8,386 nucleotides of DNA. Source: a virus. Lineage: Duplodnaviria > Heunggongvirae > Uroviricota > Caudoviricetes. The notes below the pieces were generated by a model. The model made no database searches, was not told the origin of the DNA, and saw only the letters and a program-made list of their open reading frames with translations. Every line of letters begins with the position of its first letter. The stretch's first letter is position 1. Where the stretch lies: the IMG/VR virus record IMGVR_UViG_2541047931_000004, positions 1-8,386 of that record, one strand, 5' to 3'. Positions 1 through 8,386 of the stretch are shown in pieces. Position numbers and translations under genes: made by a program.

Positions 1-1284
1 TTACTTCTTCGCCTCTGCAACCACTTTACTACCCACGCCGCGGTTATTGTATTCCCACATGCGGTTGTAGTTAGTGTCATTCAGATTGCGCTGTATTTCG
101 TCGTTATCATCTACGCTGCCGGTATTACCCGCAAACGGACGATTAGAGATCACCGCATCGGCCCACGGTTTAGCCGTGTTAAAACCTTCGTTGATGGCGC
201 TATCACGGATCACCACCTGACCGTTGGTATTGGCATCAACATCCAGCGAGCGGCCCAGTTGCGCCACACCATCACCGAAAGCATTGAAACGGCTGTTTAC
301 GGCGAGGAAACCGTAGTAAATGTTGGACAGCGTAGCCGGTGCAAACACATACGCTTCTTGCTGAGTACGTGAGTTCACCACGCGGAATTCGGTGTTATCG
401 AACACCACTGCGCCGCGACCAGAAACGATATCCACATCCCCTTCAATGTAGCTGTTGGTCACCAGCGTACGCGGCTGACGATTCGTTTCCAGACGGTTCT
501 GCACACCGCTGTTGGTGACAAAGAAGGTGTTCTGACGACCGAGAATGTTAACGTTGTTAATCTGTACCTGGTCACCATCAGTACGCAGTGCCACCGCCGG
601 ATGGTTACCTGCATCTACGCTATCGCCCAGCGTGTTTTCGATGGTCAGATTTTGCAGTTGCAGGCCATTGTTTTGTGACCAGAAGACCGCAGAGCAGAGA
701 ACACCGATACTGTCGCTGCGTTTGCTCTGGCAGCTATCGTACATATACCACGCTGGTTTACCTGGCATATATTTGCCGCGCGGGTTGACGTCGTGACGCC
801 AGTCGGCAGGGCTCATGCCACCATCAAGGGAAAGCCCAATCTTCACATCAATCGGTTTTTCACCTGTACCGTACAGAGTAATTCCACCCGGAGCGGCAGG
901 GACATATACCGTTCCCTGATACTCACCAGGCATCACGGCAATATACTGGCGCTTGTTGGTACGCTTGATAATTGCCGCATCTACCGCCGCCTGAATCGTG
1001 GTATGCGTTACACCTTGAGTGCCCGCCGGGCCGACAACAAAGTCAGGTTGCGCAGGCAGGGTAATCAGGGAAGGATTCCACGCTGCAGCACCTGGTGTCA
1101 GGGATGAAAAATAGTGTTGAGCATCGAAATTCTGCGCTTCTTTTGCCGACAGAATCGGGCGAGAAGAGGTACCAGGCGCGGTTTGATCAGAAGGACGTTG
1201 ATCGGGCGGGGTTGAGCTACAGGCGGTCAGCGTCACGCCAAAAGCCAATGCCAGCGCCAGACGGGAAACTGAAAATGTGTTCAC
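1..1284 (-). CDS. ybhC: YbhC-like outer-membrane lipoprotein, pectinesterase-fold (CE8-like) putative acyl-CoA thioesterase; chromosomal gene flanking the prophage
   Basis: Complete 427-aa ORF, GTG start at 1284 with GGAG 6 nt upstream, TAA stop at 1..3. N-terminal lipoprotein signal with lipobox LTAC followed by SS. Pectinesterase-like motifs seen in the translation (GEYQG, PAVALR, LGRS). Sequence recognised from memory as E. coli YbhC, which lies beside lambda attB. Confidence 0.85.
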   Translation of the reverse strand: MNTFSVSRLALALAFGVTLTACSSTPPDQRPSDQTAPGTSSRPILSAKEAQNFDAQHYFSSLTPGAAAWNPSLITLPAQPDFVVGPAGTQGVTHTTIQAAVDAAIIKRTNKRQYIAVMPGEYQGTVYVPAAPGGITLYGTGEKPIDVKIGLSLDGGMSPADWRHDVNPRGKYMPGKPAWYMYDSCQSKRSDSIGVLCSAVFWSQNNGLQLQNLTIENTLGDSVDAGNHPAVALRTDGDQVQINNVNILGRQNTFFVTNSGVQNRLETNRQPRTLVTNSYIEGDVDIVSGRGAVVFDNTEFRVVNSRTQQEAYVFAPATLSNIYYGFLAVNSRFNAFGDGVAQLGRSLDVDANTNGQVVIRDSAINEGFNTAKPWADAVISNRPFAGNTGSVDDNDEIQRNLNDTNYNRMWEYNNRGVGSKVVAEAKK

Positions 1285-1330
1285 AGGTTGCTCCGGGCTA
1301 TGAAATAGAAAAATGAATCCGTTGAAGCCT

Positions 1331-1345
1331 GCTTTTTTATACTAA
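1331..1345. other. attL core (overlap region O), lambda-type
   Basis: Exact 15-bp GCTTTTTTATACTAA, 47 bp upstream of the ybhC start and about 75 bp from the int stop. Identical to the lambda att core as I recall it. Confidence 0.9.
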
Positions 1346-1425
1346 GTTGGCATTATAAAAAAGCATTGCTTATCAATTTGTTGCAACGAGCAGGTCACTA
1401 TCAGTCAAAATAAAATCATTATTTG
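1346..1425. promoter_or_regulatory. P' arm of attL: IHF H' site and three Int arm-type sites (P'1 to P'3)
   Basis: TATCAATTTGTTG at 1371..1383 fits the IHF consensus WATCAA-N4-TTR. AGGTCACTAT (1392..1401), CAGTCAAAAT (1402..1411) and AAAATCATTA (1412..1421) fit the Int arm-type consensus C/AAGTCACTAT. Matches the lambda P' arm from memory. Confidence 0.75.
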
Positions 1426-2489
1426 ATTTCAATTTTGTCCCACTCCCTGCCTCTGTCATCACGATACTGTGATGCCATGGTGTCCGACTTATGCCCGAGA
1501 AGATGTTGAGCAAATTTATCGCTTATCTGCTTCTCATAGAGTCTTGCAGACAAACTGCGCAACTCGTGAAAGGTTGGCGGATCTCCTTCGAAGGAGAGAC
1601 CTGATGCTTTTCGTGCGCGCATAAAATACCTTGATACTGTGCCGGATGAAAGCGGTTCGCGACGAGTAGATGCAATTATGGTTTCTCCGCCAAGAATCTC
1701 TTTGCATTTATCAAGTGTTTCCTTCATTGATATTCCGAGAGCATCAACATGCAATGCTGTTGGGATGGCAATTTTTACGCCTGTTTTGCTTTGCTCGACA
1801 TAAAGATATCCATCTACGATATCAGACCACTTCATTTCGCATAAATCACCAACTCGCTGCCCGGTAACAACAGCCAGTTCCATTGCAAGTCTTAACCAAC
1901 ATGGTGATGATTCTGCTGCTTGATAAATTTTCAGGTATTCGTCAGCCGTAAGCCTTGATCTCCTTACCTCTGATTTTGCTGCGCGAGTGGCAGCGACCGG
2001 GTTTGTTGTTATATGGCCTTCAGCTATTGCCTCTCGGAATGCATCGCTCAGTGTTGATCTGATTAACTTGGCTGACGCCGCCTTGCCCTCGTCTATGTAT
2101 CCATTGAGCATTGCCGCAATTTCTTTTGTGGTGATGTCTTCAAGTGGAGCATCAGGAAGACTCCTCCTTATTGCTTTAATTTTGCTCATGTAATTTATGA
2201 GTGTCTTCTGCTTGATTCCTCTGTTGGCGAGAATTTTTTCGTAGCGATCAAGCCATGAATGTAACGTAACAGAATTATCACTGTTGATTCTCGCCGTCAG
2301 AGGCTTGTGTTTGTGTCCTGAAAATAACTCAATGTTGGCCTGTATAGCTTCAGTGATTGCTATCCTCCTGTCTCTGCCTAATCCGAACTCTTTACCCGTC
2401 CTTGGGTCCCTGTAGCAGTAATATCCATTGTTTCTTATATAAAGGTTAGGGGGTAAATCCCGGCGCTCATGACTTCGCCTTCTTCCCAT
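1419..2489 (-). CDS. int: Tyrosine site-specific integrase, lambda Int (356 aa)
   Basis: 356-aa ORF starting MGRRRSHERRDLPPNLYIRNNGYYCYRDPRTGKEF, recognised as near-identical to lambda Int. Its first 23 nt overlap the end of xis, as in lambda. Confidence 0.97.
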   Translation of the reverse strand: MGRRRSHERRDLPPNLYIRNNGYYCYRDPRTGKEFGLGRDRRIAITEAIQANIELFSGHKHKPLTARINSDNSVTLHSWLDRYEKILANRGIKQKTLINYMSKIKAIRRSLPDAPLEDITTKEIAAMLNGYIDEGKAASAKLIRSTLSDAFREAIAEGHITTNPVAATRAAKSEVRRSRLTADEYLKIYQAAESSPCWLRLAMELAVVTGQRVGDLCEMKWSDIVDGYLYVEQSKTGVKIAIPTALHVDALGISMKETLDKCKEILGGETIIASTRREPLSSGTVSRYFMRARKASGLSFEGDPPTFHELRSLSARLYEKQISDKFAQHLLGHKSDTMASQYRDDRGREWDKIEIK

Positions 2490-2685
2490 TTCTGATCCTC
2501 TTCAAAAGGCTACCTGTTACTGGTCGATTTAAGTCAATCTTTACCGCTGATTCGTGGAACAGATACTCTCTTCCATCCTTAACCGGAGGAGGGAATATCC
2601 TGCACTCGCGTACCCATCGACGAACTGTTTCAAGGCTTCTTGGGCGTCGCTGGCGTGCGTTCCACTCCTGAAGTGTCAAGTACAT
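2467..2685 (-). CDS. xis: Excisionase Xis (72 aa)
   Basis: MYLTLQEWNARQRRPRSLETVRRWVRECRIFPPPVKDGREYLFHESAVKIDLNRPVTGSLLKRIRNGKKAKS, recognised as lambda Xis. Start taken at the internal ATG (2685) of the 85-aa six-frame ORF. Confidence 0.95.
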   Translation of the reverse strand: MYLTLQEWNARQRRPRSLETVRRWVRECRIFPPPVKDGREYLFHESAVKIDLNRPVTGSLLKRIRNGKKAKS

Positions 2686-2697
2686 CGCAAAGTCTCC

Positions 2698-2711
2698 GCA
2701 ATTACACGCAA
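2698..2711 (-). promoter_or_regulatory. cII-type activator site TTGC-N6-TTGC of the int promoter pI (-35 region)
   Basis: Minus strand reads TTGCGTGTAATTGC, ending 13 nt upstream of the xis ATG. This is the arrangement of lambda pI, whose transcript starts inside xis and so expresses int alone (established lambda knowledge). Confidence 0.6.
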
Positions 2712-2733
2712 GAAAAAGCCGCATTGATGCGGC
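2711..2733 (-). terminator. Putative intrinsic terminator just upstream of pI/xis
   Basis: On the minus strand, a 7-bp stem GCCGCAT/ATGCGGC with a 2-nt loop is followed by TTTTTCTT. Function not demonstrated. Confidence 0.4.
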
Positions 2734-2791
2734 GATGGTAGGTCTGGATATCTTGAGAAATGAACAGGCCTCATTGAGTGTGAGGCTGTGG

Positions 2792-3136
2792 TTAGTCCTT
2801 GCGTAGCTCGCTAATTCTTCTGTAAGTCTCTGGTGCTTTGTTTCCGTGTATCTTCATTTCAGACTTCAACAGAGCAACGAGGGAATCCCATTCGTTGAGG
2901 ATTCCTTTGAATGCCGGAACGCGCTTTGCAACCTTGTCGAATGAATCTCTGATTTCTGGAATCTGCTCAACAAGTGCAACGCATCGCCGGAAGTCTGCTG
3001 CGTCATGTGGAGCGCCGAAGTGATGACCATAGATATTTTTTTTCAGTCCACATGCGATTGAGGCAAGAGTTGCGCTACTGATGCCGACATCGCCAGTTGA
3101 TTGCCATTTCAAAACCTTCATAGCCAAATCTGACAT
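2792..3136 (-). CDS. Hypothetical phage protein (114 aa)
   Basis: ORF 2792..3163. Start preferred at 3136 (MSDLAMKVLKWQ) because GGAG lies 7 nt upstream; the ATG at 3163 overlaps the upstream stop (TGATG) and is the alternative. No family recognised. Confidence 0.6.
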   Translation of the reverse strand: MSDLAMKVLKWQSTGDVGISSATLASIACGLKKNIYGHHFGAPHDAADFRRCVALVEQIPEIRDSFDKVAKRVPAFKGILNEWDSLVALLKSEMKIHGNKAPETYRRISELRKD

Positions 3137-3162
3137 TTCTTGTCTCCAATAAAAAACCGCCA

Positions 3163-3330
3163 TCAGGCGTCTTGGTGTTCTTTCAGTTCTTCAATTCGAA
3201 TATTGGTTACGTCTGCATGCGCTATCTGCGCCCATATCATCCAGTGGTTATAGCAGTCGTTGATGTCCTCTGCTTCGATAACCCTGTCGAATGGCTCTCC
3301 ATTCCATTCACCTGTGACTCGGAAGTGCAT
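3163..3330 (-). CDS. Small hypothetical phage protein (55 aa), below the six-frame track cutoff
   Basis: Hand translation: MHFRVTGEWNGEPFDRVIEAEDINDCYNHWMIWAQIAHADVTNIRIEELKEHQDA. GGAG 7 nt upstream of the ATG; the stop overlaps the next start (TGATG). Weak recollection of a similar small protein near xis in lambdoid phages, unverified. Confidence 0.55.
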   Translation of the reverse strand: MHFRVTGEWNGEPFDRVIEAEDINDCYNHWMIWAQIAHADVTNIRIEELKEHQDA

Positions 3331-3340
3331 TTATCATCTC

Positions 3341-3368
3341 CATAAAACAAAACTCGCCGTAGCGAGTT
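3341..3368 (-). terminator. Putative intrinsic terminator between the DUF551-like gene and the 55-aa gene
   Basis: On the minus strand, stem AACTCGC / loop TACG / GCGAGTT followed by TTTGTTTTAT. Confidence 0.5.
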
Positions 3369-3430
3369 CAGATAAAAGAAATCCCCGCGAGTGCGAGGAT
3401 TGTTATTCACCTTTGACGGCAAGTTGCAGG

Positions 3431-4324
3431 TTAGCCACGGTTAACCTCCTGCGGCGGTTCTGGTAGAGGCATCCAGTGTGACGGTTTCCACGACGCACCA
3501 GGAATTATCCACCCATCATTAGCGTCAGGATGCCCCGGGATGTAAGTAGCCCATTTCATTCGCCAGTCACCTTTCCTGTCAAACTCCACGGCAACAAGAA
3601 CGGCTGTTTTGGTATTCGGCATTCGCTCACTACAGCTTATCCAACCATCCGGAGTTACCGGAACTTGCGGAATGGCTGTCTGCTCTCGAACGTCATTAGG
3701 CGCTATAGGTTCTGCTGCCAACTGACTGGCATATTTGTTAATGGTAACGATAAGCTCTTGCTCAGCCTCATCCAGACAATCACCGATACCTCGCCTGTCA
3801 CCGTCAAAATCATCGAAATCGGCACGAATCTTGGCAACCTTCTGGATTGCGGACAACACCTCACTAGGAATTACCGGATAGTTGGTTGACGTTTCCGCGA
3901 TTTCCCGAAAATTATTGGTTGACGAATTCTTGTTTTCCCGAAAGTTTCCGGACTGAAGCATGGCGGCGCGGCAGGCGTTCCAGCCTCTCACCTCTGCAAT
4001 AGCGGCAACAGCATCAACCGCGTACATGCTAAGAGGATTAGGCATTGGTTTTTCTTCCGGTACTACTGGAACGGGGGGAGCGGCGTAGACCTCAATAATT
4101 CCATTATCAATAGGCCATTCTCCATCCTTGAGGTAGTCACTTGTGCCGTCAACTTGCTGTTCTGCAATGTGGAATGCACCTATTGGTTTTGCTTCCAGCG
4201 ATGCCAGAGCAATTCGTGCCAGTTCTTCCGCTTCTTCTGCTGGCAGTACAACGTTGCTATCAGGTCCGTATGTTTCGCGCCACTGCTTGATTGTCAGCAG
4301 TCGCTCTTTGGTAATAGTGATCAT
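3431..4324 (-). CDS. DUF551-like domain phage protein (297 aa)
   Basis: C-terminal segment PDGWISCSERMPNTKTAVLVAVEFDRKGDWRMKWATY...WMPLPEPP resembles the DUF551 domain common in enterobacterial prophage proteins (from memory). AAGGA RBS; ATGA overlap with the upstream gene stop. Confidence 0.75.
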   Translation of the reverse strand: MITITKERLLTIKQWRETYGPDSNVVLPAEEAEELARIALASLEAKPIGAFHIAEQQVDGTSDYLKDGEWPIDNGIIEVYAAPPVPVVPEEKPMPNPLSMYAVDAVAAIAEVRGWNACRAAMLQSGNFRENKNSSTNNFREIAETSTNYPVIPSEVLSAIQKVAKIRADFDDFDGDRRGIGDCLDEAEQELIVTINKYASQLAAEPIAPNDVREQTAIPQVPVTPDGWISCSERMPNTKTAVLVAVEFDRKGDWRMKWATYIPGHPDANDGWIIPGASWKPSHWMPLPEPPQEVNRG

Positions 4325-4836
4325 GCCGCGTTTCCTTCTTTCTTATTAACAATTACACCGTCATATATTTCATTAAGGTGCCCTCTCAACTCCATGCGCC
4401 TTAATGCAGATAACATGTAATCGCATTCAACCTGCTTATTCCCAATAAAAGGTTTATCTTCAGGGTTACCCCAACAGCAATTCCCCTTGGGCCATCCATG
4501 TACTTTCCGTACTCTTCCGTTAACAACGTGAAGTAATCCCCAGCCGGAAGGTAAATCCTCAACTGAAATAATTCCCGGCTCACTAATAAAGAATCGCCAG
4601 TCGCCCATTCCAAGAGATGGATTTTTACGAAAACGCTTTTTTCTATCTGCCAACAAGTCAGCACGAGAACACTTCGCCTCTATCAGGCATGATGCTGAAT
4701 TTCTGAACCCCATAGCATCTGGCTGTTCTCCGGTACTGGTTACAGCTATAAAGCGGTCATGAAAACAAACCTTGAACCCGTTGCGCTTAAGGAACTTATA
4801 CGCAATCTGACAGAGTTCGCGGTGTGTTAACGCCAT
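4321..4836 (-). CDS. Putative PD-(D/E)XK nuclease-fold protein (171 aa), possibly MmcB-like
   Basis: Start taken at the internal ATG (MALTHRELCQIAYKF) with AAGGAG 7 nt upstream. Motif order helix with E (RELCQIAYKFLKRNG), then PD (GEQPDAMGF), then ExK (CLIEAKCS), consistent with the restriction-endonuclease-like fold. Family assignment is a guess. Confidence 0.7.
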   Translation of the reverse strand: MALTHRELCQIAYKFLKRNGFKVCFHDRFIAVTSTGEQPDAMGFRNSASCLIEAKCSRADLLADRKKRFRKNPSLGMGDWRFFISEPGIISVEDLPSGWGLLHVVNGRVRKVHGWPKGNCCWGNPEDKPFIGNKQVECDYMLSALRRMELRGHLNEIYDGVIVNKKEGNAA

Positions 4837-4837
4837 A

Positions 4838-5026
4838 TCACTCTCCTTTAGTGCGCAAGTGGTTTTTCCAGCGGTTTTGCGCCGCGCTGGGCTTTTTGCA
4901 AAAACCACAATCCATCATCCCGTAATATTTCATCAACCCCATCCGTCGGTTGCTGAGTCTCACCCACTGCCAGACGCCAGGAGCGTTTCTACGAACTAAC
5001 AGAATCTTTGCTTTACGGTTTTTCAT
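4838..5026 (-). CDS. Small basic ORF (62 aa), MKNRKAK copy 2
   Basis: MKNRKAKILLVRRNAPGVWQWVRLSNRRMGLMKYYGMMDCGFCKKPSAAQNRWKNHLRTKGE. Its start overlaps the stop of the upstream mini-ORF (ATGA), and its last codons contain the RBS of the nuclease gene. Weak RBS of its own; coding status uncertain. Confidence 0.35.
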   Translation of the reverse strand: MKNRKAKILLVRRNAPGVWQWVRLSNRRMGLMKYYGMMDCGFCKKPSAAQNRWKNHLRTKGE

Positions 5027-5199
5027 CTTACAGCGTACCCTTTCTTCCGCCTGTTCTGTGACGCAGTAGGCTTACGCTTTGCGGCAAAAGCCACCTGACC
5101 AAATGGATGGAGTACCGCTATCTTATGGTTGCTAATAACCAGCTCCACCACACGCACAGGTCGCTGTAAAAAAAGTCGTTTTGCCTTACGGTTTTTCAT
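5023..5199 (-). CDS. Small basic ORF (58 aa), MKNRKAK copy 1
   Basis: Hand translation: MKNRKAKRLFLQRPVRVVELVISNHKIAVLHPFGQVAFAAKRKPTASQNRRKKGYAVR. AGGAGA 8 nt upstream. Shares its first 7 residues and about 20 nt with the downstream 62-aa ORF. Coding status uncertain. Confidence 0.35.
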   Translation of the reverse strand: MKNRKAKRLFLQRPVRVVELVISNHKIAVLHPFGQVAFAAKRKPTASQNRRKKGYAVR

Positions 5200-5371
5200 C
5201 GCTTTGCTCTCCTGCGTCTCTTTGCTGCTCGTCGTGCCGCTGCAATACCGGTATGGCGGCGCTTTGGTGACGGGATGATGTTGTCAGCCATCAGTACATG
5301 TGGCTTTGCAATTAGCGCAGAAGCCCAAAAACGAGTCGGGTACGGTAACAAGCCGATACATGCCACACGCA

Positions 5372-5848
5372 TTACTCACCTCCTTTGATGCGAATGCCAG
5401 CGGTGCGTGGCACATTAACTTCCACGATGCGCACTGTTGGTTTGTACATCTCAATCGCTGTCAGCCAGTCAGCTCCTGTCATGCGCTTTTCCGCATCGCC
5501 ATTAGTCCACTGAACCGGTACACCAATAGCCTTCATCGCGATTTCTATTTCCCCGGCAATGGCGCTTTTTCCGCAACCAGTAAAACCAGATACAACGACA
5601 AGAACTTCGCCTTTTGCTGGTTTTATTTCCCGCGTCTCCATCTCTGCAATTCGGCATATAGAATCAATATTTGTGTCTTCTAGGCGTTTAACTTCATCCA
5701 ACAATGCCAACGCGATATCTGGCGAAAAGTGCTTCATAAAATCGTTAAGCGCATTAATTCGCTGATCGAAAGGCATTACAGGTGCTTCACCAGCAATTTT
5801 TGTTTTTTCAGCGATTTCACGAAGCTTTTGATAATCAATCTTGCTCAC
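5372..5848 (-). CDS. Putative Ead/Ea22-like family protein (158 aa) with a C-terminal Walker-A-like motif
   Basis: GTG start at 5848 preferred: AAGGAGG 6 nt upstream and GTGA overlap with the upstream stop; the six-frame start at 5869 has no RBS. The N-terminus [15 protein letters not shown] resembles Ea22-like proteins as I recall them. C-terminal [28 protein letters not shown] fits GxxxxGKS. Confidence 0.65.
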
Positions 5849-6012
5849 TGGTTGCCTCCTTTGCGCCACATCGCATTCAGATATTTGTTTTGATTCACTG
5901 ATGGAAAAGAATTTCTCTTAAGCAATTCCTCTCTCGATGGCATTGGCTTTACGCGTTGGCGAATAATCATTTCTGCCGGAAGAATGCCGGGATTGTATGC
6001 AAGTCCTCTCAT
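5845..6012 (-). CDS. Small hypothetical protein (55 aa)
   Basis: [55 protein letters not shown]. Start at 6012 chosen for GAGG 8 nt upstream; an alternative ATG at 6030 overlaps the upstream gene by 8 nt. Stop overlaps the Ea22-like GTG start. Confidence 0.4.
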
Positions 6013-6022
6013 GGTAAATTCC

Positions 6023-6319
6023 TCAGTCATTACTGATAGCGCCATAGCGTGAGCGGTAATTACGCAGGCGCGGGTCGATATATTCAGGGAAGTGGGTATA
6101 TGTGGCTTTGCGGAATGGTCGGATTGATGTTTCGTTTGTTCGGTCCTTCTCATTTTTTAACGCGAGTTGTATATCGCGTCGGTACATCCGTTCTGCTTTT
6201 GTTTCTGGTGGCAGATCGATAAACGTGTCGAAAATGTTTTTGATATTTTCCAGCACCTCCGCCTTGGAGCTACCGGAGCAATTGCGCGGGGCATCCGCAC
6301 CATACAGAGGCGCTGGCAT
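6023..6319 (-). CDS. Hypothetical phage protein (98 aa)
   Basis: ORF begins 23 nt after the SSB-like gene stop, with a weak AGG RBS. Charged, lysine- and arginine-rich. No family recognised. Confidence 0.55.
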
Positions 6320-6342
6320 AATGGGAGCCTTATTTTCAGTAA

Positions 6343-6930
6343 TCAGAAAGCAGGGTAATCGTTCTGGCTGTAACCATAATCATCTGCATGATTCTGGCTT
6401 ACGTTTTTAGAGCGATTGTCTTTATCTTTGAGATTGGCAACCATGTTGGCGATAGTTTCTGGTTGCTTGCCTTCTGCCTTTTCTTTAAGGGTTTGACCTG
6501 TTTGTGCAATAAACGGGATGCGTATTTCCATCTGGTAGTTGTCTGCGCCAGTCTTTTTGTTTGTAGTTAATACTTTCTGGAGCACTAACCCGATTTTCTT
6601 TCCATGAAATTCAGGTGCAACAAATTTACTGGCGGAAACCATATGCTGCGTTAATTGTCCAATCCCGGCACACCCCATCATGGCGTGAACGACATTTGCG
6701 CCAAATTTGTTTTCCGTTCCGTCATTTTTCTGAACACAGACGCTAAGATATTGGATTTTACGTCCGTCGTCGGATTCTCCAGAAAACTCAATAAATTTGG
6801 CTCCTTTTTCTGATTGCTTTAGTTCTGCTTCAGTAATGGTAATGATATGGGCGCCAGTTTCGTTAATAAAACCACCTTGCCCTGCGGTCAGTGCTGCTTC
6901 TTCGTTATAAGTAAAAATCACGTTGCTCAT
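6343..6930 (-). CDS. Putative phage ssDNA-binding-like partner of Sak4 (195 aa)
   Basis: ATGA overlap with the Sak4-like gene stop; AAGGAA RBS. C-terminal tail DDYGYSQNDYPAF is acidic/aromatic and ends in Phe, like the C-terminal tips of E. coli SSB and T7 gp2.5. No canonical SSB motifs recognised; function inferred from tail and context. Confidence 0.6.
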   Translation of the reverse strand: MSNVIFTYNEEAALTAGQGGFINETGAHIITITEAELKQSEKGAKFIEFSGESDDGRKIQYLSVCVQKNDGTENKFGANVVHAMMGCAGIGQLTQHMVSASKFVAPEFHGKKIGLVLQKVLTTNKKTGADNYQMEIRIPFIAQTGQTLKEKAEGKQPETIANMVANLKDKDNRSKNVSQNHADDYGYSQNDYPAF

Positions 6931-7607
6931 GCGGCGTTTTCCTTAATTTGATGAACATTATTGATGCCGTAGTAATCACAAACAGTGGCATCGACGAAAG
7001 AGAGATCGTTATCAATCTCATTGGAATCAAACATTCCCATTGGGGATTTGACAGTGTCTGCACCGTTGTTTTTCGTGGTGAAAAAGAACTGGTCATCGCG
7101 GGTAAGAGTGCGAAGAACTATAGTAAACATGCCTTCGACAGTGATTTTCTCGTCCAGCATTTTGCCGATAGTTTTCATTTTCACGCGCCCCATAGGGGTT
7201 TCTTCGGTATGTGCAAGAAAATAGACTCTCAGGTCATCAGGTGCATCCTGTGCAGCCTTAATCACCTCCCATGCGTGGCGGCCTATCTCAGTAAATTTAT
7301 CAAACGATTTTTCTTCTGAGCGGCGCATAAACTCATTGCTCATCACATACTGGAAGTCATCAACAATAACGATTCTTTTTCCGTATTCGTGAGCACGCTT
7401 AATTACAGCAACTATTACGTCCCATTTGTCAGTGGTAACTACGGTTCCTTTTTTTGCTCTGGCATCCCATGCAAGCCAGTCTTTTGATTTAAATGGTAGC
7501 GGCTTGCCTATTGGTTTTATAAGTATTGCTTCCTCTGGATTGATATTTCTCATGCTGGTTGATTTTCCGGTGCCAGATTCACCGAGTATTAATGTCGCAG
7601 TTCCCAT
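6927..7607 (-). CDS. Sak4-like RecA-fold recombination ATPase (AAA_24-type core, 226 aa)
   Basis: Walker A GESGTGKST at residues 9..17 and Walker B-like RIVIVDD. Size and position match Sak4-type single-strand annealing proteins of phages. GAGG RBS 6 nt upstream. Confidence 0.8.
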   Translation of the reverse strand: MGTATLILGESGTGKSTSMRNINPEEAILIKPIGKPLPFKSKDWLAWDARAKKGTVVTTDKWDVIVAVIKRAHEYGKRIVIVDDFQYVMSNEFMRRSEEKSFDKFTEIGRHAWEVIKAAQDAPDDLRVYFLAHTEETPMGRVKMKTIGKMLDEKITVEGMFTIVLRTLTRDDQFFFTTKNNGADTVKSPMGMFDSNEIDNDLSFVDATVCDYYGINNVHQIKENAA

Positions 7608-7615
7608 AATTTGCC

Positions 7616-7804
7616 TCAGAATGGTAATTCGGATGGGCAGGAAAGAAATTCGCGCTCATTCATGCGCTCTCTTTGCGCCTGCCATAAACAAAGTTGTTTC
7701 TTTGATTTATCTCCCGCTTTACGCCAGTAACGAGCCTCAGCAATGTGATATTCTCTTTTTAATCGACTTAACTCTGGAGTTTTCGCCAGTTCTACCGGAA
7801 TCAT
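7616..7804 (-). CDS. Hypothetical phage protein (62 aa) occupying the position of lambda gam
   Basis: Start at the second ATG (MIPVELAKTPELSRLKREYHIAEARYWRK) with GGAGG 5 nt upstream; ATGA overlap with the kil-like stop. Not similar to lambda Gam as I recall it. Confidence 0.55.
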   Translation of the reverse strand: MIPVELAKTPELSRLKREYHIAEARYWRKAGDKSKKQLCLWQAQRERMNEREFLSCPSELPF

Positions 7805-7914
7805 TTTGACCTCCATTTTCTGTAGGCTTCTACGGCTTCACGAAACATCTTTTCATCGCCAATAAAAGTGGCGATAGTGAATTTAGTCTGGATAGCCATA
7901 AGTGTTTTATCCAT
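7801..7914 (-). CDS. kil: Kil-like host-killing protein (37 aa), C-terminus diverged from lambda
   Basis: MDKTLMAIQTKFTIATFIGDEKMFREAVEAYRKWRSK. The first 27 or so residues match lambda Kil (MDQTLMAIQTKFTIATFIGDEKMFREAV) from memory. AGGAG RBS inside the cIII 3' end; overlaps cIII by 8 nt. Confidence 0.6.
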   Translation of the reverse strand: MDKTLMAIQTKFTIATFIGDEKMFREAVEAYRKWRSK

Positions 7915-8047
7915 TTTTGGGAACTCCTGGCTGATTAAGTATGTCGATAAGGCGTTTCCATCCATCACGTAATTTACGTGTGATTCGTTCAAGTAAAGAT
8001 TCGGAAGGGCAGCCAGCAACAGGCCACCCTGCAATGGCATATTGCAT
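7907..8047 (-). CDS. cIII: CIII, FtsH-inhibitor regulator of lysogeny (46 aa, C-terminally shorter than the 54-aa lambda CIII)
   Basis: MQYAIAGWPVAGCPSESLLERITRKLRDGWKRLIDILNQPGVPKNG matches lambda CIII from memory, including the core helix ESLLERITRKLRDGWKRLIDIL. AAGGAG 6 nt upstream of the ATG. Confidence 0.85.
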   Translation of the reverse strand: MQYAIAGWPVAGCPSESLLERITRKLRDGWKRLIDILNQPGVPKNG

Positions 8048-8110
8048 GGTGTGCTCCTTATTTATACATAACGAAAAACGCCTCGAGTGAAGCGTTATTG
8101 GTATGCATAT

Positions 8111-8134
8111 AAAAAGGCCCTCACACTGGAGGGC
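8111..8134 (-). terminator. Putative intrinsic terminator upstream of cIII
   Basis: On the minus strand, stem GCCCTC / loop CAGTGT / GAGGGC followed by CTTTTTAT. Position resembles the lambda tL region before cIII (recalled, not verified). Confidence 0.5.
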
Positions 8135-8227
8135 AAAGAAGATTTCCAATAATCAGAACAAGTCGGCTCCTGTTTAGTTACGAGCGACATTGCTCACATA
8201 GCAGACTCGTAAATCTGCTATAGGCGC

Positions 8228-8386
8228 TTATTCGCATCGCATGACAACATCAAATTTTTCGAGATTACTTTGTCGCAACAATCCTTCTTCTACGCGGTCA
8301 GCTTTTCTATAATTATCAAATTCGAAATGTTTAATTACTTCTTTTGTTTCTCGCTCTATAACTTCAACGATGTATTTCTTATTCAT
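8228..8386 (-). CDS. Small AT-rich hypothetical ORF (52 aa); ATG is the last 3 nt of the window, so RBS and true start are not visible
   Basis: Hand translation: MNKKYIVEVIERETKEVIKHFEFDNYRKADRVEEGLLRQSNLEKFDVVMRCE, stop TAA at 8228..8230. Local AT content is clearly higher than the rest of the window. Could extend beyond the window. Confidence 0.35.
   Translation of the reverse strand: MNKKYIVEVIERETKEVIKHFEFDNYRKADRVEEGLLRQSNLEKFDVVMRCE

Follow-up and report, generated by a model that had tools for sequence, protein, structure and literature searches.

The recombination module and its prophage setting

The window analysed here is a stretch of 8,386 nucleotides of viral DNA (Caudoviricetes; positions 1 to 8,386 of IMG/VR record IMGVR_UViG_2541047931_000004), which represents one end (attL) of a lambdoid prophage inserted at att-lambda, beside the Escherichia coli gene ybhC. 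All phage genes of the window lie on the minus strand, and among them is a recombination (Rec) module of four genes, hkaM, sak4, ssb and abc2, which follows cIII and kil. A preliminary description had placed a Sak4-type ATPase, a coupled 195-residue partner resembling proteins that bind single-stranded DNA (ssDNA), known as SSBs, and an open reading frame (ORF) of 62 codons between lambda-like cIII/kil and xis/int, and all of them were found, on the minus strand; however, the interval that it assigned to the module, 6343-7830, contains these genes but leaves out abc2 (6023..6319), the fourth one.

Following the direction of transcription, kil encodes a 37-residue protein of the HK620 type (7801..7914, minus strand; PF06301, 74.1 bits, above the Pfam cut-off). 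Its stop is joined by an ATGA overlap to the start of hkaM (7616..7804, minus strand), which codes for a 62-residue product of unknown function (phrog_1723, E-value 3.3e-33). A longer hkaM of 66 residues, starting from the upstream ATG at 7816, was considered and discarded: the 62-residue form was preferred because of a GGAGG motif located 5 nt before its ATG, of the overlap with kil and of the N-termini of the homologues.

The next gene is sak4, the homologue of HK620 hkaL (6927..7607, minus strand). It encodes a 226-residue ATPase made of a RecA core only, which matches phrog_2872, annotated as “Sak4-like ssDNA annealing protein” (E-value 3.9e-108), and the Pfam family AAA_24 (PF13479; 30.2 bits, cut-off 27); the sole further Pfam domain to score above its cut-off is AAA_22, an overlapping P-loop family. 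Its Walker A motif, GESGTGKS, is found at residues 9-16, and a Walker B-like motif, IVIVDD, at residues 79-84. A further ATGA overlap joins the sak4 stop to the start of ssb (6343..6930, minus strand), and through it the SSB is translationally coupled to sak4. This gene, the homologue of hkaK, also referred to as SSB-2 or DUF669-type SSB, produces the 195-residue protein (phrog_743, “single strand DNA binding protein”, E-value 1e-66). The last gene of the module, abc2 (6023..6319, minus strand), codes for an anti-RecBCD protein (PF11043, E-value 2.7e-36, 124.1 bits against a curated cut-off of 25; phrog_656, E-value 3.7e-46).

This region is almost certainly the HK620-type early-left Rec module (hkaM, sak4, ssb, abc2) of a lambdoid prophage and, as far as can be judged from its sequence, it matches that module in every feature examined here. 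Positions 5864 and 8195 are the break points of the window relative to HK620; between them the alignment is collinear and unbroken, with 95.1% DNA identity over 2.3 kb. Gene order, overlaps and the cIII-kil flank are identical to those of the hkaM-hkaL-hkaK-hkaJ module of this phage (Clark 2001; Hutinet et al. 2018, PMC5928155), for which the annotated order is cIII, kil, hkaM, hkaL (Sak4), hkaK (SSB), hkaJ (abc2) and hkaI (DUF2737). Sak4 is identical to HkaL at 225 of 226 residues (99.6%), with E43D as the sole change, a finding that, together with the phrog_2872 and AAA_24 matches, bears out the initial naming of the ATPase as Sak4-type. The SSB shares 191 of 195 residues with HkaK (97.9%; differences N131S, E153V, N166S and A194P), HkaM 61 of 62 (98.4%) and Kil 36 of 37 (97.4%) with their HK620 counterparts. 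Identity of Abc2 to the HK620 protein is 67% overall; all differences but one fall in residues 1-63, and residues 64-98 hardly differ. With respect to HK620 the protein is a mosaic, and the abc2 DNA is about 95% identical to that of phage APC_JM3.2. Unlike HK620, which has an IntS-type integrase, the prophage carries lambda int/xis as its integration module, at att-lambda.

The HK620-type module is thus already known: it was characterised in 2018, including a tail-deletion experiment, and E. coli prophages commonly carry it. At least 80% of the length of the 6343-7830 stretch is present in 179 of 5426 complete E. coli genomes, with strain CE10 at 99.9% identity; the module occurs also in P22-like phages (Lederbergvirus; APC_JM3.2 and JEP4) and in dozens of Stx-converting phages. 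Protein sequences exactly identical to those of the window were found in a public protein collection in 217 contigs for the SSB, at least 1000 for Sak4 and 783 for HkaM.

As for the surroundings, the window begins within ybhC (1..1284, minus strand), an E. coli chromosomal gene coding for a Pectinesterase domain. The lambda att core, GCTTTTTTATACTAA (1331..1345, plus strand), is matched exactly, 47 bp from the ybhC start codon, and a lambda-type int occupies 1419..2489. The stretch comprising int and xis (1331-2733) is 97.5% identical to lambda DNA, and homology to lambda starts exactly at the att core, which indicates that the attL junction of a prophage inserted in the chromosome lies within the window. 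Beyond int/xis lies an ea-type block, which includes DUF551, Ead/Ea22-like and several PHROG families of unknown function and ends with a DUF2737 gene (5845..6012, minus strand) next to abc2. A 62-residue ORF (4838..5026, minus strand) covers positions 1-61 of the 230-position profile phrog_9263, and a 195-residue ORF overlapping it (4321..4908, minus strand) covers positions 58-230; a frameshift in a single gene could account for the pair, or they could be separate genes with fused counterparts in other phages. A tandem paralogous ORF of 58 residues (5023..5199, minus strand) belongs to the same phrog_1380 and has the same MKNRKAK start as the 62-residue ORF. On the opposite side of the module, cIII (7907..8047, minus strand; PF02061, 103.8 bits, above the Pfam cut-off) encodes the 46-residue short form that is found also in HK620, and the cIII thermoregulator RNA is intact (8002..8060, minus strand; Rfam RF01804, 88.5 bits, the gathering score being 50). 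The TAA stop of cIII is due to the same nucleotide change that gives Lys instead of Gln as Kil residue 3.

The SSB, its tail and its recombinase partner

The SSB terminates with ...DDYGYSQNDYPAF, and the tip of its tail is NDYPAF (6343..6360), compared with NDYPPF in HK620. A lack of recognisable canonical SSB sequence had been remarked on from the start, and profile searches agree with it: neither the window protein nor any of 50 homologues matches PF00436, the canonical SSB family, even at E<=10, and hhalign comparison of its family with a canonical phage/E. coli-type SSB gave a probability of 0.3%, which is not significant. No Pfam or NCBIfam model matches the 195-residue protein, and PDB sequence searches with the SSB and with Sak4 returned no relatives. 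The cluster to which the protein belongs is named “DUF669 domain-containing protein” in NCBI sources; Pfam DUF669 gave no match for the window SSB and weak ones for 12 of the 50 relatives (best E-value 0.0067).

The fold was modelled with AlphaFold2, using a family alignment of 50 sequences (54-98% identity). The resulting model has a mean predicted local distance difference test score (pLDDT) of 82.7 and a predicted template modelling score (pTM) of 0.78; it contains strands at residues 26-39, 45-53 and 58-67, a helix at 75-88 and two further strands at 112-123 and 130-140. This order, beta1-3, alpha, beta4-5, is predicted to be an oligonucleotide/oligosaccharide-binding (OB) fold, while residues 177-195 are disordered (pLDDT <50). 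In a Foldseek comparison, the model was matched best by PrgE from pCF10, an Enterococcus conjugative plasmid (PDB 8s4s/8s4t; E-value 5.5e-4, probability 1.00), which is the closest solved structure; B. subtilis SsbA and further SSBs came next, with weak scores. As an OB-fold SSB, PrgE is atypical, and its authors regard it as phage-derived; its sequence identity to the window SSB is 13-14%, and it binds as monomers in filaments and to double-stranded DNA too, whereas the HK620 SSB behaves as a tetramer with a partner-recruiting tail. The SSB-like nature proposed in the preliminary description had been made to depend on the presence of an OB fold, and a predicted OB-fold core is what AlphaFold2 and Foldseek point to.

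The literature is divided over the SSB kinship of the HkaK-type protein. Hutinet et al. 2018 considered HkaK a distant SSB homologue, linked by HHsearch to the N4 gp45, Lc-Nu and PhiAT3 SSBs and giving no direct match to E. coli SSB (PMC5928155). A publication of 2025, on the contrary, does not regard it as a homologue. As far as sequence relationships and the predicted model indicate, the 195-residue protein is a member of a phage-type lineage of divergent SSBs (N4 gp45, Lc-Nu, PhiAT3, PrgE-like), outside the bacterial SSB family. E. coli SSB and the HK620-type SSB are alike in binding ssDNA as tetramers and in having an OB-fold core, together with a disordered, Phe-ended tail that recruits partners; however, no sequence homology is detectable between their cores, the HK620-type tail is less acidic and the HK620-type protein binds ssDNA with about 4-fold lower affinity. 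Across the 50 homologues, conservation of the terminal Phe is 90% or higher, with P, A, S, Q, D or M as penultimate residue; within the 90%-identity cluster of the SSB, tails ending in PPF, PAF, PLF and PTF are all present, and the final Phe is constant.

Experimental data on these proteins come from HK620 (PMC5928155). Sak4 of this phage is an ssDNA-binding protein whose annealing of complementary strands depends on ATP and is poor when it acts alone. HkaK is a true SSB, with the apparent size of a tetramer; it forms two sequential complexes on an 81-mer, has an affinity for ssDNA about 4-fold below that of E. coli SSB, and blocks RecA-mediated annealing. It strongly boosts the annealing activity of Sak4 in vitro, as well as recombineering in vivo; a version lacking the final six residues, NDYPPF, inhibits instead of stimulating, and Sak4 is no longer able to bind ssDNA coated with it. 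Thus, the deletion experiment that the preliminary description had suggested for the window protein, abolishing stimulation of Sak4 by removal of the tail, was already in print for the HK620 SSB, and the functional tail attributed to the window protein is in line with its 97.9% identity to an SSB for which the tail requirement is published. In vivo, sak4 plus ssb are as active as all four genes of the module together, and in oligonucleotide recombineering nothing is gained by adding abc2 to sak4; Abc2 is described as making RecBCD act as a 5'-3' exonuclease, by which ends are prepared. The same study reports that ssb adjoins sak4 in about 80% of cases (PMC5928155).

The tail had also been proposed to be a convergent handle for the ATPase or for host proteins. 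Its role as a handle is supported by the HK620 data, according to which it recruits the ATPase, but divergence is at least as likely as convergence, because of the OB fold and of the membership of the protein in a phage SSB lineage.

From the literature on proteins that are 98-99.6% identical, the window proteins would be expected to bind ssDNA, to anneal it and to depend on the tail. Leftward transcription from pL would proceed through cIII and kil and then through hkaM, sak4, ssb and abc2. Abc2 would modify the host RecBCD, with the consequence that ends are processed for recombination instead of being destroyed; the tetrameric OB-fold phage SSB would coat ssDNA and, once bound, its C-terminal tail (NDYPAF) would recruit Sak4 onto the SSB-covered strand; and Sak4, a RecA-core-only ATPase, would then anneal complementary strands at the expense of ATP. 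In this way the module would replace lambda gam-bet-exo both in function and in position.

Some points weigh against such an account. The biochemistry was obtained with HK620 alleles, to which those of the window would be equivalent by near-identity, and the tail of the window SSB differs from the HK620 tail that was tested precisely at its penultimate residue (P194A); we infer that this Pro-to-Ala change is tolerated. The equivalent proline of E. coli SSB is the site of ssb-113 (P176S), a change that weakens partner binding. The equivalence of Abc2, given its 67% identity to HK620 Abc2, would rest on the Pfam match. Finally, HkaM is dispensable for oligonucleotide recombineering (PMC5928155).

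The constancy of the partnership between Sak4 and the SSB was examined in a survey of 80 IMG/VR loci (L013-L092) with an HkaM at least 97% identical to that of the window. Downstream of hkaM, Sak4, a DUF669-type SSB and Abc2 are found in 64 of the 80 loci, the same set followed by an Erf/Rad52-type gene in one (L073), and Sak4 only was detected in another one; an Erf/Rad52-type recombinase is instead present together with a canonical SSB and Abc2 in 13 loci, and with a canonical SSB in one. The sak4-ssb pair is accordingly carried by 65 of the 80 loci, and from these gene sets it is clear that the swapped unit is the recombinase-plus-SSB pair, exchanged between constant hkaM and abc2 flanks.

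One edge of this unit is visible as a mosaic junction at 7603..7604, after the ATGG of the recombinase start codon, which was located by blastn against an E. coli HZ13 prophage and by alignment and is the second one of the region, besides the junction with lambda described below. The HZ13 prophage matches window positions 7604-8195 at 97.3%; cIII, kil and hkaM are common to the window, to HZ13 and to Salmonella phage ST64T, the latter two then carrying an Erf/Rad52-type recombinase. More generally, the arf-erf-abc1-abc2 modules of P22/ST64T and the E. coli modules composed of an Erf/Rad52-type recombinase, a canonical SSB and abc2 have the same kil and abc2/DUF2737 flanks as the window, and in the ST64T and HZ13 versions a HkaM homologue lies directly upstream of the recombinase, as it does here; they differ in the recombinase, which is of the Erf/Rad52 type, and in the SSB, which is canonical (PF00436) or absent.

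The pairing of Sak4 with its SSB is not absolute. In phage ArgO145 (L004, NC_049918, 1565-4088), a DUF669-type SSB 85% identical to that of the window follows gam-like, RecT and exonuclease genes and has no Sak4, with a similar arrangement in related Stx phages; therefore, an SSB of the DUF669 type need not have Sak4 as its partner. In locus L009, on the other hand, the gene after that of a Sak4-like AAA_24 protein encodes a canonical PF00436 SSB, and a survey published in 2025 reports the same promiscuity, listing SSB-2 beside a RecT-type annealase in TL-2011c. These arrangements would fit a general-purpose phage SSB, whose tail serves mainly other recombinases or host genome-maintenance proteins, as would a section heading of the HK620 paper, according to which the HK620 SSB stimulates RecA-mediated strand exchange in vitro (PMC5928155). 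Such a role is possible, although we consider it rather unlikely: in 64 of the 80 loci surveyed Sak4 and the DUF669-type SSB travel as one cassette, the Erf-type alternative has a canonical SSB of its own, and the tail is specifically needed for the binding of Sak4 to SSB-coated ssDNA (PMC5928155). Moreover, a general-purpose SSB is compatible with the recruitment of Sak4 by the tail and does not exclude it. The Gam-like protein of ArgO145 likewise ends in ...SPCPF.

The negative PF00436 searches (at E<=10, for the window protein and its 50 homologues) and the hhalign probability of 0.3% could also be explained if the 195-residue protein were a Sak4-specific adaptor and not a true SSB, with a convergent tail and with neither OB fold nor ssDNA binding, which is highly improbable for a protein with a predicted OB-fold core and a near-identical relative, HkaK, reported to bind ssDNA.

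The junction with lambda inside kil

Homology to lambda DNA, as detected by blastn, is confined to four stretches of the window: 1331-2733 (att core, int and xis), 3147-3406, 7812-8106 and 8107-8195. At 8106/8107, lambda ea10 (lambda 33523-33922, 400 bp) is cleanly missing and the homology picks up beyond it, likewise in HK620. No lambda DNA homology was found by blastn between 3406 and 7812, and gam, bet and exo are thus absent from the window; every ORF between these two positions was assigned to other families. This agrees with the early proposal that the module stands in for lambda gam-bet-exo, the Red genes, which occupy the same slot after cIII-kil in the pL operon. The two modules have their overall job in common, namely to block or redirect RecBCD and to anneal ssDNA, but there is no sequence relationship between them: lambda Beta is Rad52-like, whereas the annealase of the window is an ATP-dependent RecA-core protein, and the window module has no exonuclease, includes its own SSB and carries Abc2 in place of Gam. 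It is not a lambda Red module.

The similarity of kil and cIII to lambda, on which the preliminary description had relied, is real (96-100%), and the limit of the module does lie in the 3' end of kil, as there proposed. Per-base counts from a gapless alignment of the window with lambda gave identities of 76/76 for 7832-7907, 15/20 for 7812-7831 and 9/32, which is background, for 7780-7811. The first mismatch is at 7831, in kil codon 28, and this corresponds to the loss of homology that had been placed after about codon 27 (around 7835); however, that point marks the end of perfect identity, and recognisable homology extends to codon 34/35, where blastn, a three-way alignment and the per-base counts locate the mosaic junction with lambda-type (gam-bet-exo) phages at 7811..7812. 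The last homologous base, 7812, corresponds to lambda 33228.

The position of this break with respect to the genes is informative. The ATG at 7816..7814 aligns with the start of lambda gam, 7816 being equivalent to lambda 33232, the first base of the gam ATG, and the sequence shared with lambda ends with ...AAAATGGA, 4 nt past that first base (A). The junction is therefore a boundary at the start of the first gene of the Rec module, which is normal for lambdoid mosaicism, and it falls inside kil because kil overlaps this gene. As a consequence, the Kil of the window is 37 residues long, against 47 for that of lambda; the two proteins are homologous through codon 34, and their C-termini are unrelated beyond it.

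The same kil junction is found in HK620 and in every other carrier examined, which makes it an old junction and not one peculiar to this prophage. The abrupt stop of lambda homology inside kil and the shorter Kil could suggest a recent illegitimate recombination that was private to the prophage and created a new hybrid with a truncated Kil, but this is extremely improbable, since the same junction and the 37-residue Kil occur in HK620, APC_JM3.2, ST64T-like phages and many Stx phages, and the break comes directly after an ATG corresponding to the lambda gam start codon, a gene boundary typical of lambdoid mosaicism. A junction peculiar to this prophage was accordingly ruled out.

HkaM and the significance of the module

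Relatives of HkaM were gathered by word-based and exhaustive profile searches, which yielded a family of 19 full-length members, with identities down to about 35%. In the 19-member alignment six columns are invariant: A24, R28, G31, E46, Pro61 and Phe62. The last two form the C-terminus, and the tails of the family read SELPF, SDLPF, GKIPF, DELPF, DDLPF, NRMPF, NDLPF, DEMPF, KDMPF, GEPPF, GETPF, GPCPF, GPAPF and GNCPF. The AlphaFold2 model of HkaM is a helical hairpin (helices at residues 10-30 and 33-49) followed by a tail predicted to be flexible, the last dozen or so residues being modelled with low confidence. Pfam and NCBIfam scans of HkaM gave nothing usable; the labels “ANR family transcriptional regulator” (UniRef) and “recombinase” (PHROG) were rejected as unsupported, no curated model reproducing them.

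The genomic neighbourhood of the family is dominated by annealases. In seven of the eight other contexts examined, an annealase gene lies directly downstream of hkaM, and in the eighth (L008) a small HNH gene is found between the two. Like the window, HK620 and L009 have a Sak4/AAA_24-type annealase, and an Erf/Rad52-type one is present in L005, L006, L011, L012 and L008; also for the most distant member of the family, P0185, an ERF gene comes next downstream. An exception is L010, where the hkaM relative is found amid ordinary metabolic genes. In P22, the hkaM slot is occupied by arf, the product of which is unrelated to HkaM and ends in ...FAGYYS.

A hydrophobic residue followed by Pro-Phe-COOH is also the tip of the tails of E. 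coli SSB (DDDIPF) and HK620 SSB (NDYPPF) (PMC5928155). The resemblance of the invariant Pro-Phe terminus to this tip raises the idea that HkaM might be an SSB-tail mimic, docking in the SSB-tail pocket of the phage recombinase or of host proteins of the SSB interactome (e.g., ExoI, RecQ, RecO, PriA or the chi subunit) and thereby tuning or hijacking SSB-mediated recruitment during phage recombination. This must be regarded as a doubtful, speculative proposal: distant members of the family are not acidic before Pro-Phe, and the dispensability of HkaM for oligonucleotide recombineering, mentioned above, counts against it as well (PMC5928155). Searches of the literature for hkaM or for phage mimics of the SSB C-terminus, in a searchable library that is incomplete, found nothing relevant; the observation on the Pro-Phe terminus may be new.

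With the module itself already characterised in HK620, the residual value of the analysis lies in the precise start-codon junctions, in the polymorphism of the SSB tail, in the structural link to PrgE and in the Pro-Phe terminus of HkaM. The assignments are of use for annotation, as the RefSeq entries “ATP-binding protein”, “DUF669” and “hypothetical” correspond to Sak4, SSB and HkaM, respectively, and the region provides a clean example of lambdoid modules exchanged exactly at start codons. The natural variation of the SSB tail among PPF, PAF, PLF and PTF could guide mutagenesis of the Sak4-SSB interface and, if the Pro-Phe terminus of HkaM proved to be functional, SSB-dependent recruitment would gain, in this small protein, a new type of regulator.

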